A stretch of DNA of 64,000 bases from Hadesarchaea archaeon. Its GTDB lineage: Archaea; Hadarchaeota; Hadarchaeia; Hadarchaeales; Hadarchaeaceae. Under the pieces are notes generated by a model, which worked only from the letters and a program-made list of their open reading frames with translations, was not told where the DNA came from and did not search any database. The stretch covers positions 96,001 through 160,000 of the forward strand of contig JAPDJH010000004.1 in NCBI GenBank assembly GCA_029259175.1, read 5' to 3'. Shown in pieces: positions 12,728 to 52,605 of this stretch. How positions within the stretch are numbered: the first letter of the stretch is position 1; each line of letters begins with the position of its first letter. Position numbers and translations under genes: made by a program.

Positions 12728-12800
12728 TGGGCCCGGTGGGATTCGAACCCACGCTCTCCACCTCGTAAGGGTGGCGTCATAACCGCTAGACCACGGGCCC
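12728..12800 (-). tRNA. tRNA-Val(TAC)
   Basis: GGGCCCG acceptor, CCACC-CT TAC GA-GGTGG anticodon arm, GGTTCGAATCC T arm. Confidence 0.96.
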
Positions 12801-15231: not shown

Positions 15232-15335
15232 TGGCGCCGGGGGCGGGATTTGAACCCGCGAGGCGCAACGCGCCACAGGGTTTTCGCGGCACTGCCTTAG
15301 CAACCCTGCGCCCTACCTGGCTAGGCTACCCCGGC
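15232..15335 (-). tRNA. tRNA-Ser(GCT) with 16-nt canonical 37/38 intron (15282-15297), encoded CCA
   Basis: GCCGGGG acceptor, long variable arm; BHB formed by TTGC/GCGA helix with two 3-nt bulges. Confidence 0.93.
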
Positions 15336-31327: not shown

Positions 31328-31412
31328 CCGTGTTTAGGTTTCCGCACGTACCATATTATTCTTTTCAATTCCCATTATAGCATGGAGCGATGAGATCTTG
31401 AAGTTCAGCGGA

Positions 31413-31547
31413 ATGAAGTGTCCGAAGTGCCAAGTTGGTGTTTTGGAGCGGTGGACTGCGGGTGACGAGGAGGACGAGGAGGCTACGTGGACGGCGTACC
31501 GGTGTACCGCTTGCGATTATGTTCTGAAAATCAAGCATGTGGATTAA
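31413..31547 (+). CDS. Zinc-ribbon microprotein (44 aa)
   Basis: MKCPKCQVGVLERWTAGDEEDEEATWTAYRCTACDYVLKIKHVD. Confidence 0.55.
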   Translation: MKCPKCQVGVLERWTAGDEEDEEATWTAYRCTACDYVLKIKHVD

Positions 31548-31606
31548 AAATTCTCATTAAATTATCAAAACTTCGCAATCTTGTAAACGCCGCGGGTTCA
31601 GAAAAG

Positions 31607-31713
31607 TGCTTCCCGGGAAGCGAGAGCGCTTCTCGCTTCCTTCCGGGCGGGATTCGAACCCGCGGCGCGAGCTCGAGAGGCTCGCATGTTTGACCGGGCT
31701 ACACCACCGGAGC
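31607..31713 (-). tRNA. tRNA-Glu(CTC) with putative 32-nt intron (31610-31641) at position 70/71
   Basis: CGAGC-CT CTC GA-GCTCG; the 5' strand GCTCCGG pairs fully with CCGGA|GC only after removal of a bulge-helix-bulge-like insert. Confidence 0.85.
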
Positions 31714-31900
31714 ACCAGAAAGTTATGATTTTCTCTACTCAAAAAAATAGCCCCTCTGTGAAAGGATCTCGATTGGTGCGATGAGGTTAATCCAAATTTT
31801 CCACTGTCCGAGAATACTCCGTGTAATCATCGAGAAGGTCGTGGTTAGGTGTCAGACCTGCACACAGCTCCGAACGAACCAATCAAAAAACAAAATTTTA

Positions 31901-31919
31901 ATACTTGTAAAACAAGTAT
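31901..31919. promoter_or_regulatory. Palindromic operator ATACTTGT-N3-ACAAGTAT upstream of the AbrB gene
   Basis: Perfect 8-bp inverted repeat next to a TTTTAA box. Confidence 0.5.
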
Positions 31920-31926
31920 GATTTGT

Positions 31927-32187
31927 ATGAAAATAAAAATCGAAGGAGTCGTGAAAGTCTCGCCTAGAGGACAGATAGTAATTCCAAAAGAAATCAGGGA
32001 ACGTCTCGGGATCCGGACCGGAGAGAAACTTTTGGTGGCGAGTAGGGGGAAAGAAATCCTGCTCAGGCGGCCGGAACTTTCACTCGAAGAGACCGGAGAA
32101 AAGGTAGAGAAGCTCGCGAAGGAGAAAGGGGTCGACATCGATAGACTGATTTCTGAGGCGCTGGAATGGGCGAGAAAATCCGGATAG
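31927..32187 (+). CDS. AbrB/MazE-family antitoxin
   Basis: VSPRGQIVIPKEIRERLGI. Confidence 0.9.
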   Translation: MKIKIEGVVKVSPRGQIVIPKEIRERLGIRTGEKLLVASRGKEILLRRPELSLEETGEKVEKLAKEKGVDIDRLISEALEWARKSG

Positions 32188-32591
32188 TTTTGGACACGAA
32201 TGTATGGGTGTCGATTTTCACTAAAAAGGCTTTAAGCAGGGAATTCACCCGGGTTTTTGCAGATGAGAAAGTCCAAGTTTTTATCTCTAAAGAAATTCTG
32301 AACGAGATATCAAAAGTCTTGGTATATCCCAAACTCGCTGAACTGTTCAAGCGTGCTGGAACGCATCCGCGAGAAATCTTGAAAACAATCGTGGAGAACA
32401 GTACGCCAGTAAAACCCAAACGGAGAGTGAAAATCATAAAGGAAGATCCAGCGGATAACAGAATACTCGAATGCGCTCTTGAAGCCAATTGCGACTTTAT
32501 TGTCAGCGGAGACAAACATCTGCTCAGACTGAGGAAGTTTAAAAGGACCCGAATTTTGTCGCCTAGGGAATTTGTAGAACTTATAAGCTAG
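32166..32591 (+). CDS. PIN-family toxin
   Basis: VLDTNVWVS, DPADNRILECA, IVSGDKHLL, ILSPREF. Confidence 0.9.
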   Translation: MGEKIRIVLDTNVWVSIFTKKALSREFTRVFADEKVQVFISKEILNEISKVLVYPKLAELFKRAGTHPREILKTIVENSTPVKPKRRVKIIKEDPADNRILECALEANCDFIVSGDKHLLRLRKFKRTRILSPREFVELIS

Positions 32592-50942: not shown

Positions 50943-52605
50943 AGTATCCGAACAATTCAGGACAACCATATAAAGGGTTTTTGGATAGAATCAGTAGTAG
51001 GTGCGGCCGTGGTCTAGTCTGGTCTAGGACTTGGGCCCTCCAAGCCCACGACGCGGGTTCGAATCCCGCCGGCCGCACCTTTCTGGAGGAGAATGCAACC
51101 TTTGCTTTTCTTAACAATTCAAGCAAGTCTCTGACTATTGCCTTCTTCAAGACATGGAAGATGGCACCAACTTTAAAGTATCCGAGGTCGTCCATCGCCG
51201 TGTTCTTTTCTGTGAGTTCCGAAAGAATCTCTTCGGGGCTGAGGTTGAATCTGCGACACAAGTCGAGTATAGTTTTCTTCACGAACTCGCTTTCCGAAAC
51301 GGCCTTCGGCAAAATGCTAAATCCGCTACGTGCGTACTCGTTTCGTAGGTACTCCACGCCCAACGATCTGATATCGTTATATGTGCTTACCTTGTGTCCC
51401 ATCATATATTCGATATGGTCGATTGGAACTCCTCGAGCAGTTAACTGAGTCCGGAAAAACTTACGAAGAGAGTAAAGGCTCCATCTATACCTATTGTTAA
51501 AGCGTTTGTCAGTCATGCCCGCCAAGCGCCTAAGCTTTGCGAACTCCTTTGCCAATGTCTTCTCGCTTACGGGCTTCGGTTTTGGCGAGCGCGAATCTCG
51601 TATAAGCGGTGAATCATCGGTGATTTCTTCGGGAGGAATTTTTCCATCCGGACTTCCCCTCCGACGCATGTCCAGGTATAGTTTTAGATACCGGGCGGTC
51701 ACTTCGTCCACGAATGTGTCATATGAAGCGTACTTTCCCTTCGTGATTTCCTTTTCAATAAATATGTGAAGTGGTGTGATGTTTCGCTCCAGATCCTCCC
51801 GTACGTGATAATATTTCAACCGGCACACTGTGTACGGCCTGATTCCTCCGCCTCCGACGAACCCGATGATCACTTTCCCGCGCAGGTCAGCCACTTCCAT
51901 CAGTCTTTCAACCTGTTCTATAGTGGGCGCGTCGGCTCCGCTTCCATACTCCACACCTCGAATTTTGGGAAGGCTGAGGCTGATATCGTTAACACGGTAA
52001 AGAGCCAGGATGGCCTTGCGATAGTTGTCTATCCTGCCGGTGGACAGACCTGCATCTTGAAGTTCCTCCAAAAAACGTATTATTCCATCCCGGTGGGTAG
52101 AAATCCTTGTAGAATCACGTGTAATATCGTTTATCAGCTCGTCAGGTTCATAGCGGGCCCATTGGGAGAACCGATGAATACAATCCACATATAAGTACAA
52201 TGTCTTGGGGCTCTGAATTTGTCTTCGTAAATAGTAATCACTCAATCGTATCAAGCTCTTGTTCCTTAGCACAAACGGTATCAGGCGGCCTCGGTTTTTT
52301 GCTAGGCTTAAAATATACTTGGCGAGCTTAAGCGATCCCAATTTTGATAAATCGCTCAGAGGAATCTCCACCGGATTCTTCAGCTTCTTTCCGTCGAGTG
52401 TTTCTTTCAAGATAAAGAAGTCGTCTTGTAGCTTTCCATGTGCTAATATGGGGGCCAGCTCGTCTTCGCTTAGCGGTTGCTTTTCAGGAAAAGTTAGCTT
52501 TTCCGGAAAAGTTACCCTAGAAGTGCCCCGCGCCTCGTGGTTTTCATCCATTTGGATTTGCTTTCTGTTCCTCATGTTCTCCATATAGATATATGTTCTC
52601 CTCAA
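50755..52605 (-). CDS. Tyrosine recombinase/integrase; ORF continues through the tRNA-Gly antisense
   Basis: GIR, TKGK, YSLRKFF, MMGHKVSTY catalytic pattern; exact start uncertain. Confidence 0.9.
   Translation of the reverse strand: MRRTYIYMENMRNRKQIQMDENHEARGTSRVTFPEKLTFPEKQPLSEDELAPILAHGKLQDDFFILKETLDGKKLKNPVEIPLSDLSKLGSLKLAKYILSLAKNRGRLIPFVLRNKSLIRLSDYYLRRQIQSPKTLYLYVDCIHRFSQWARYEPDELINDITRDSTRISTHRDGIIRFLEELQDAGLSTGRIDNYRKAILALYRVNDISLSLPKIRGVEYGSGADAPTIEQVERLMEVADLRGKVIIGFVGGGGIRPYTVCRLKYYHVREDLERNITPLHIFIEKEITKGKYASYDTFVDEVTARYLKLYLDMRRRGSPDGKIPPEEITDDSPLIRDSRSPKPKPVSEKTLAKEFAKLRRLAGMTDKRFNNRYRWSLYSLRKFFRTQLTARGVPIDHIEYMMGHKVSTYNDIRSLGVEYLRNEYARSGFSILPKAVSESEFVKKTILDLCRRFNLSPEEILSELTEKNTAMDDLGYFKVGAIFHVLKKAIVRDLLELLRKAKVAFSSRKVRPAGFEPASWAWRAQVLDQTRPRPHLLLILSKNPLYGCPELFGYYADRQAHNPYWLQIRVLGRVRVLHRGKCGSQDRTRPCVSSRHQHSIGLSRTGNWERIASPDN
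51003..51077 (+). tRNA. tRNA-Gly(TCC), probable integration site
   Basis: GCGGCCG acceptor, TGGGC-CC TCC AA-GCCCA, GGTTCGAATCC. Confidence 0.9.

Follow-up and report, generated by a model that had tools for sequence, protein, structure and literature searches.

The tRNA-Glu(CUC) gene at positions 31607-31713 (minus strand) of the 64,000-nucleotide stretch of DNA analyzed here (hereafter the window) is split after nucleotide 70, as read from the sequence, and is most probably a working gene that carries a 32-nt, protein-spliced intron of the BHB type at position 70/71. The host is a hydrothermal-vent archaeon represented by a Hadarchaeota metagenome-assembled genome (MAG) of 1.31 Mb in 23 contigs, which is 91% complete. 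Splicing of the insert is suggested by a combination of the insertion itself, its motif, the conservation and covariation of its homologues, and the presence of the enzymes. A BHB intron at 70/71 with a last exon of three nucleotides, spliced before trimming, had already been proposed in the preliminary description of this DNA, and the congeners, the geometry, the covarying homologues, and the encoded enzymes now lend support to that proposal.

Structure of the tRNA-Glu(CUC) Gene

The 5' exon of the gene (31642..31713, minus strand; tRNA nucleotides 1-70, 72 gene bases) is defined by the sequence, by ARAGORN and Rfam, and by comparison with congeners. The D-arm, the anticodon arm (anticodon CTC at 31677-31675, minus strand), the T-arm, and the first five 3' acceptor bases are normal, and the exon ends with CCGGA at 31642. 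The three bases directly after CCGGA do not pair with G1 and C2, and the Rfam tRNA model flags both terminal acceptor pairs as non-pairs, in agreement with the initial observation that the gene is normal up to CCGGA with G1 and C2 left unpaired. The intron occupies 31610..31641 (minus strand) and is identified by its absence from the congeners, its presence in contigs of four out of four sequencing runs, and a covarying hairpin in its homologues. Read on the minus strand, it is composed of a first base A (31641), a hairpin arm GGAAGCGAGA (31640-31631), the loop AGCGC (31630-31626), a second hairpin arm TCTCGCTTCC (31625-31616), the strand CGGG (31615-31612), and the last bases AA (31611-31610). 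The 3' exon (31607..31609, minus strand) is the trinucleotide GCA, which comprises G71, C72, and the discriminator A73 with no encoded CCA, and is assigned from the sequence, from removal of the insert in silico, and from the congeners. The bases directly 3' of GCA are CTTTTC. Scripted excision of the 32 nt yields a 75-nt tRNA-Glu(ctc) with seven out of seven Watson-Crick acceptor pairs, confirming the earlier claim that removal of the insert leaves a perfect 7-bp acceptor stem plus discriminator.

The interrupted gene is imperfectly described by tRNA-finding programs. ARAGORN reports tRNA-Glu(ctc) as a shifted 77-nt gene at 31638-31714, and the match of the gene to the Rfam tRNA model (43.5 bits) is the lowest among the nine tRNA matches in the window. 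It had been predicted that standard finders would call the gene truncated or pseudo; the low Rfam score and the misplaced ends agree with this prediction, but ARAGORN still calls a tRNA-Glu(ctc). In tRNAscan-SE 2.0, candidates are lengthened by 60 nt so that introns close to gene ends are not missed. Where standard finders return low scores and misplaced ends, genomes can seem to be without a proper tRNA-Glu(CUC).

Other irregular tRNA loci were observed in the same genome. An Rfam tRNA match of 101 nt in the window (15235-15335, minus strand; 50.5 bits) is missed by ARAGORN without the intron option and is called as tRNA-Ser(gct) with a 16-nt intron when introns are allowed. At C1:118624-118715 of G000, ARAGORN reports a 'tRNA-???' with a 4-base anticodon, and an integrase match is located nearby at C1:119027-119473. 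Because ARAGORN calls no tRNA-Tyr anywhere in the genome, this locus may be a disrupted tRNA-Tyr.

The stretch of approximately 1 kb just upstream of the tRNA-Glu gene is filled by a VapBC-like pair (31849-32591, plus strand) made up of a MazE/AbrB-like antitoxin ORF and a PIN-domain ORF; this stretch is missing from L077, the contig of a close relative that is described below. No homing endonuclease was found beside the tRNA-Glu gene, the upstream ORFs being the MazE/PIN pair. Farther away in the window, a PF00589 tyrosine-recombinase match (51391-51918, minus strand) adjoins tRNA-Gly(TCC) at 51003-51079, which suggests an integrated element. The preliminary description had placed integrases at both tRNA-Val and tRNA-Gly, and this match accounts for tRNA-Gly; no PF00589 match was found near tRNA-Val at 12728-12800.

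The BHB Motif

The central helix of the motif is formed by the exon strand CCCG (31644..31647, minus strand; nucleotides 65-68), identified from the sequence, the geometry test, and structure evaluation, and the intron strand CGGG (intron bases 27-30, 31615-31612). The 5' bulge (31643-31641) contains G69 and A70 followed, across the junction, by the first intron base A, while the 3' bulge (31611-31609) contains the last two intron bases A and A followed by G71. The first intron base and CGGG directly abut the two ends of a perfect 10-bp hairpin. If each bulge were cut behind its second base, exactly the required product would result. As an A precedes both junctions, the cut site is equally writable as 69/70; the BHB register favors 70/71.

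The splice-motif geometry noted at the outset, which consists of a 4-bp helix, two 3-nt bulges, and a 10-bp hairpin, is present in the sequence and was recovered uniquely by a test with three requirements, namely a 4-bp helix, a flush hairpin with 4 bp or more, and a restored G71-C72. The real sequence has one solution, with an intron length of 32 and a hairpin of 10 bp. When the downstream 80 nt were shuffled 200,000 times, this minimal geometry appeared in 93 cases, and among 371,856 sampled positions of the genome its frequency was 0.13%. The likelihood that the motif originated by chance is low.

Next to the 3' bulge, the outer helix has only one pair, G64:C72, and C63 is opposite A73. Consequently, the tRNA-Glu intron falls short of the strict hBHBh' form, said to be required by alpha4 and alpha'2 EndA, in which the outer helix h at the 3' bulge has at least 2 bp. 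The preliminary description gave the length of the outer helix as only 1 bp; this is correct for G64:C72 alone, but overlooks a helix of 13-14 bp between the trailer and the T-arm that closes the motif from outside and sits past an internal loop of approximately 6x7 nt from G64:C72.

Predicted Pairing of the Trailer with the T-Arm

The outside helix involves a 3' trailer element, TGAACCCGCGGCG(T) (31587..31600, minus strand), which is the complement of the T-arm 5' strand and begins six bases after GCA. Its partner (31655..31668, minus strand; nucleotides ~44-57) runs from the variable loop through the T-stem 5' strand into the T-loop. The assignment of the element is based on its uniqueness in the genome, on the minimum free energy (MFE) fold, and on its recurrence elsewhere. 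The 12-nt core of the element and its complement occur only at the tRNA-Glu(CUC) locus in the genome, and among 211 T-loop-like genome sites this is the only one with a downstream complement in which all 12 of 12 pairs are Watson-Crick. Both the trailer helix and the intron hairpin are present in the MFE fold of the gene plus its trailer. For this trailer-containing sequence, the calculated energy of the BHB conformer is -52.9 kcal/mol versus -39.3 for the insert-bearing cloverleaf; the corresponding values at 70 °C are -22.2 and -13.6.

The occurrence of the trailer helix was also surveyed across gene sets, including the related introns described in the following section, using a criterion of nine or more uninterrupted pairs no farther than 40 nt from the 3' end. 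Of 20 distinct Glu-70/71 genes, 17 have the helix, as do 12 of 30 distinct Asp-68/69 genes, compared to one of 24 intact Glu/Asp genes of relatives, two of the 41 other tRNAs of the host genome, and 3% of shuffled trailers. Pair types in the helix covary at nucleotides 45, 46, 47, and 49, as counted with our own script, the trailers in the MAFFT alignment (A1) being out of register. Mean trailer pairing is 9.4 bp for cognate versus 7.7 bp for non-cognate combinations, in a set where many sequences are close kin. Pairing of non-cognate trailers remains fairly good owing to the shared GGGTTC core. Taken together, the trailer-helix signal is real but not overwhelming.

The trailer helix is interpreted here as a clamp, which would close off the weak outer helix and hold the 3-nt exon in place. 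Between GCA and the trailer element there are four consecutive T residues (five in L077), which might end transcription before the clamp is made. The trailer clamp may be the new part of the system described here. No description of a helix between trailer and T-arm was found in the accessible text of the literature, which is weak evidence of absence.

Homologous Introns in tRNA-Glu and tRNA-Asp Genes

Homologues of the 70/71 intron were identified with a search pattern that specified the T-loop, the exon bases, and the final nine nucleotides and placed no constraint on the intron interior. The pattern occurs in 25 stretches of JGI metagenome contigs. In 24 of these stretches the insert consists of one base, a flush hairpin, CGGG, and then A plus A/T; L100 is a doubtful member of the set. 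The contig L077 belongs to a close relative of the host, with flanks that are 94-95% identical, and keeps the intron with one C-to-T change that converts a G-C pair to G-U. The other stretches derive from tRNA-Glu(UUC) or tRNA-Glu(CUC) genes; in most of these, the matching 5' strand is found 53-129 nt upstream, and further introns are often present.

An alignment was constructed from 15 of the 16 distinct sequences, L079 having been dropped as it differs from L078 only at the trailer end. Across these 15 homologues, 95.4% of cells pair and seven of the 13 pairs change on both sides. The covariation score was reached by none of 500 shuffles, and every slid register is at most 58% paired. In the five outermost base pairs of the hairpin, pairing reaches 100% of cells, and four of the five change on both sides. 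These results match the expectation, set out beforehand, that aligned tRNA-Glu loci would reveal a conserved BHB with a variable hairpin, with the qualification that the central helix and G64:C72, which are invariant in the alignment, are partly fixed by the search pattern and provide no covariation information.

The distribution of the Glu 70/71 pattern among genomes is narrow, as counted with one exact pattern that misses variant acceptor stems. In the phylum it was found in one of 66 genomes, which is that of the host, and for this reason the intron is regarded as recent in the host. The pattern was also found in two of 301 genomes sampled from the class of a Bathyarchaeia MAG, in none of a sample of 201 genomes of the order to which a Nitrososphaerales MAG belongs, and in none of five named genomes that carry the tRNA-Asp intron discussed below. 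The last two results led us to drop the guess that the soil contigs with the Glu intron are from Thaumarchaeota. The preliminary description did not place 70/71 among the known non-canonical intron sites, and the position is on no list found in the searchable literature. The site is nevertheless not unique to the host, as tRNA-Glu genes of the Bathyarchaeia-class genomes and of the metagenome contigs have an intron there.

More elaborate arrangements are seen in some of the soil-metagenome contigs. In L082, L091, and L099, an insert of approximately 660 nt follows directly after CCGGA and is itself followed by a second copy of the T-arm with a small 70/71 intron; approximately 760 nt separate the 5' part from the 3' module. 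A LAGLIDADG-like ORF (L099:3905-4630) adjoins the duplicated module; an integrase was considered at this site in L099 and none was found, only the LAGLIDADG-like ORF. In the tRNA-Glu genes of L088 and L094, a long insert is located after the T-stem 5' strand.

A sister intron is present two bases upstream of the 70/71 site and is widespread. In G006, G011, and G024, tRNA-Asp(GUC) contains an insert of 20-22 nt at 68/69 with the layout of the Glu 70/71 intron. The intron-bearing gene is the only tRNA-Asp-like match at 99% identity or above in each of these genomes, the other matches (86% identity at most) being other tRNAs, and each genome has one EndA match. Since no other tRNA-Asp is found there and Asp has only that anticodon, these intron-bearing genes must work; splicing of introns on the 3' side of the acceptor stem is therefore within the capacity of the phylum. 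The tRNA-Asp 68/69 pattern was found in 31 reference-genome stretches with introns of 18-32 nt (L018, L023, L024, and L045-L075), of which 15 are titled Hadarchaeota, Hadesarchaea, or Hadarchaeum, 10 Bathyarchaeia or Bathyarchaeota, two Nitrososphaerales, and one Terraquivivens, with three under other titles. Similar to Glu 70/71, the Asp 68/69 introns begin with a single base, continue with a flush hairpin, a 4-nt strand that pairs with the exon, and A plus A/T, and are followed by the last exon; in many of the genes, the trailer is a complement of the T-arm 5' strand. In contrast to the host tRNA-Glu gene, in which the outer helix is 1 bp and the last exon is 3 nt with no CCA, the Asp 68/69 genes have an outer helix of 2 bp and a last exon of 8 nt with encoded CCA.

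Comparison with Congeners and Origin of the Insert

The Glu(CUC) locus was compared with two of the three congeners, G001 and G003, and BLAST was run against 40 relatives. The third congener, G002, is represented by an 88%-complete genome in about 200 contigs. BLAST identity to the orthologues in G001 (96%) and G003 (94%) stops at query base 79, which corresponds to A70, and the genes of both congeners are uninterrupted through the last acceptor bases and continue into an encoded CCA. The insert is a true insertion relative to the congeners. The 3' acceptor strand is continuous in all 23 tRNA-Glu rows from relatives that were inspected, and two of these 23 genes have an ordinary anticodon-loop intron. 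In one sister genus (L019 from G022 and L025 from G015), the intron of tRNA-Glu(CUC) is instead an ordinary one of 16 nt in the anticodon loop, and the intron content of this gene therefore varies within the family. Comparison of 31607-31600 with L002 and L003 indicates that the encoded CCA was lost here and that the T run after it was kept.

The position of the differences along the gene bears on the origin of the intron. Bases 1-48 are identical to the G001 and G003 orthologues, and all differences are 3' of nucleotide 48, namely at nucleotides 49, 57, and 65, in the intron, in the lost CCA, and in the trailer. The body differences comprise a compensated T-stem pair, G49:C65 here versus C49:G65 in the congeners, and a purine swap in the T-loop. 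This pattern is in line with a scenario in which the intron is functional but of lateral origin, wherein a T-arm-to-trailer cassette was recombined from the tRNA-Glu 3' segment of another archaeon or from a mobile element. Such a transfer, which concerns only the origin of the intron as opposed to inheritance or de novo insertion, is a real if minority possibility. It is consistent with the match between the 3' part of the gene and the T-arm of intron-bearing Glu genes elsewhere, with the resemblance of the intron and trailer to those of L089 and L096, and with the occurrence of the pattern in a single genome of the phylum and also in the Bathyarchaeia-class sample. However, the likeness of the introns is largely imposed by their shared structure, and the GCGGG/CCCGC form of the T-stem is also found in intact genes of the order. 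Furthermore, the locus contains no second tRNA fragment or element remnant, and tRNA-Leu(UAA) is located directly downstream, likewise in G003 and L077. A repeat or mobile insert was rejected separately, as a genome search found no other copy of the hairpin arms and the 12-nt trailer element also has no other copy in the genome.

Whether the gene functions at all must also be considered. The gene could be dead or dying, with the insert being a scar (for example, of recombination with foreign DNA), the tRNA not being matured, and GAG being read by tRNA-Glu(UUC). The presence of the pattern in one of 66 genomes of the phylum, the loss of a CCA that is encoded in the congeners, and the low Rfam score are each compatible with decay, and a tRNA-Glu(UUC) gene is called by ARAGORN at C3:190694. 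As this tRNA might read GAG, loss of tRNA-Glu(CUC) could be tolerated. Decay of the gene is nonetheless unlikely. GAG is the commoner Glu codon in the host genome (56.5% of Glu codons, 42 per 1000), and the tRNA-Glu genes in all 23 rows from relatives are intact. The body changes outside the insert are compensated rather than disabling, and the relative represented by L077, diverged by approximately 5%, keeps the insert with a change that is compatible with pairing. The full architecture of BHB and trailer recurs with covariation in other archaea. Finally, the gene is the sole Glu(CUC) gene among 50 ARAGORN calls, and neither ARAGORN nor BLAST found a second tRNA-Glu(CTC) in the 91%-complete genome, a check that the preliminary description had called for; neither of the marks of a pseudogene, disabling body changes or an intact second copy, is present.

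An assembly or binning artefact that joined unrelated reads, although the genome is metagenome-assembled in 23 contigs, has a negligible probability and is eliminated as the refutation envisaged in the preliminary description, as one contig (1.7-18.6 kb) spans 31400-31900 in each of four DNA runs (four samples from two studies of vent and marine-sediment metagenomes, two of which may be source data) with 0-1 substitutions (at 31479) and no indels, and the separate JGI contig L077 has the identical structure.

Splicing and Maturation Enzymes

A working, spliced tRNA-Glu(CUC) gene would depend on enzymes that are found in the host genome. A PF01974 profile search identified one EndA gene, in the C4:82938-83198 region, whose 178-aa product has both the N-terminal and the C-terminal Pfam domain. 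A weak second PF01974 match on C7 was rejected, as it lies in a ribosomal-protein gene region and is not an EndA subunit, and a phmmer --max search of the 13,276 ORFs of the 91%-complete genome found no EndA paralogue. In the 40 relatives there is exactly one EndA match in 36 genomes, two in one, and none in three. The alignment of the host EndA to the alpha4 enzyme of M. jannaschii (1a79) is near gap-free with no insertion, and the alignment to the A. pernix enzyme (3p1z_B) contains a 9-residue gap at the crenarchaea-specific loop. By sequence, the host EndA is alpha4-like, with a single subunit of ~180 aa, no paralogue, and no loop of the crenarchaeal type. The genome also encodes RtcB (E 1e-183) and an archaeal CCA-adding enzyme, the latter being important because the tRNA-Glu(CUC) gene, unlike its orthologues, encodes no CCA.

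Published studies state that alpha4 EndA needs the strict hBHBh' form (PMC3239211, PMC5829648). The 1-bp outer helix of the tRNA-Glu intron counts against splicing, as this published rule bars a loop-less alpha4 enzyme from such a motif.

Proposed Mechanism of Splicing

The structure of the locus suggests a mechanism in which the trailer helix makes up for the short outer helix. First, transcription of the precursor would extend past the intron and the 3-nt last exon into the trailer for approximately 20 nt or more, and the 3' third of the precursor would initially fold as a rod rather than as a T-arm and acceptor stem. Pairing of the trailer (31600-31587) with the T-arm 5' strand over 13-14 bp would free the T-stem 3' strand and nucleotides 66-68, allowing G64:C72 and the CCCG/CGGG helix to form. 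The resulting rod would contain, in order, the trailer helix, an internal loop, G64:C72, a bulge, the 4-bp helix, the second bulge, and the 10-bp hairpin as a cap. Next, the single-subunit, alpha4-like EndA would cleave after the second base of each bulge, while the trailer helix would hold the tiny 3' exon, still joined to the trailer, on the tRNA body. RtcB would then ligate A70 to G71, and the spliced tRNA would refold into a cloverleaf. Finally, the trailer would be trimmed after A73 and CCA added. As the last exon has only 3 nt, splicing must therefore precede 3' trimming and CCA addition.

A broader suggestion, which we put forward tentatively and rate as not far short of an even prospect, is that Glu 70/71 and Asp 68/69 constitute a distinct module in which an 'anti-T-arm' trailer is an obligatory fourth part, and that the T-arm-to-trailer cassette may cross phyla by recombination. 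If this is true, anti-T-arm pairing would unfold the T-arm, close a sub-minimal BHB, and tether an exon of 3-8 nt, and even a loop-less alpha4 EndA could splice such introns.

Comparison with Known Systems

Non-canonical BHB introns, some of them in the acceptor stem, are well known (PMC4090602, PMC12397907, PMC8450103). Reviews give archaeal tRNA intron positions from 3/4 to 59/60 (PMC4090602), and the acceptor stem is mentioned as an intron site (PMC12397907). A list of positions that includes 68/69 or 70/71 was not found in the searchable literature; this is weak evidence of absence, slashed positions not being text-searchable and supplements lying outside the text that was covered. The host intron resembles the non-canonical BHB introns of Thermoproteales and others, including those at 3/4, in that it is short, is located outside the anticodon loop, and has a motif composed of both exon and intron; cutting by EndA is known for those introns and would be expected here. 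Unlike those introns, the host intron lies on the 3' side of the acceptor stem with three bases of the tRNA still to follow, and its motif requires the 3' strand of the T-stem and apparently depends on transcription of the trailer. A last exon of 3 nt shows how far the disruption of a tRNA gene can go.

The closest enzymatic comparison is with the Hadesarchaeon studied by Kaneta et al. 2018 (PMC5829648), for which that study, in agreement with the alpha4-like assignment made here, reports an alpha4-type EndA bearing an 'L3' loop, along with a marked increase in disrupted tRNA genes, and credits the broad specificity of the enzyme to that loop; its text names no intron positions. Both EndA enzymes are from the same phylum, are single-subunit, and occur with introns at non-canonical sites. 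In the alignment made here, the host EndA shows no insertion relative to the M. jannaschii alpha4 enzyme, although an 'L3' loop may still be present. The presence of this intron in a phylum with a supposedly strict EndA type consequently puts to the test the rule by which the diversity of introns follows the architecture of EndA.

A further parallel is provided by the split tRNA genes of Nanoarchaeum and Caldivirga, in which complementary flanks hold two RNA pieces together for EndA and ligase (PMC4390854). The proposed trailer helix would similarly hold a 3-nt exon. The arrangement in the host differs from the split genes in that a single transcript is involved and the trailer pairs with the T-arm of the exon, not leader with leader.
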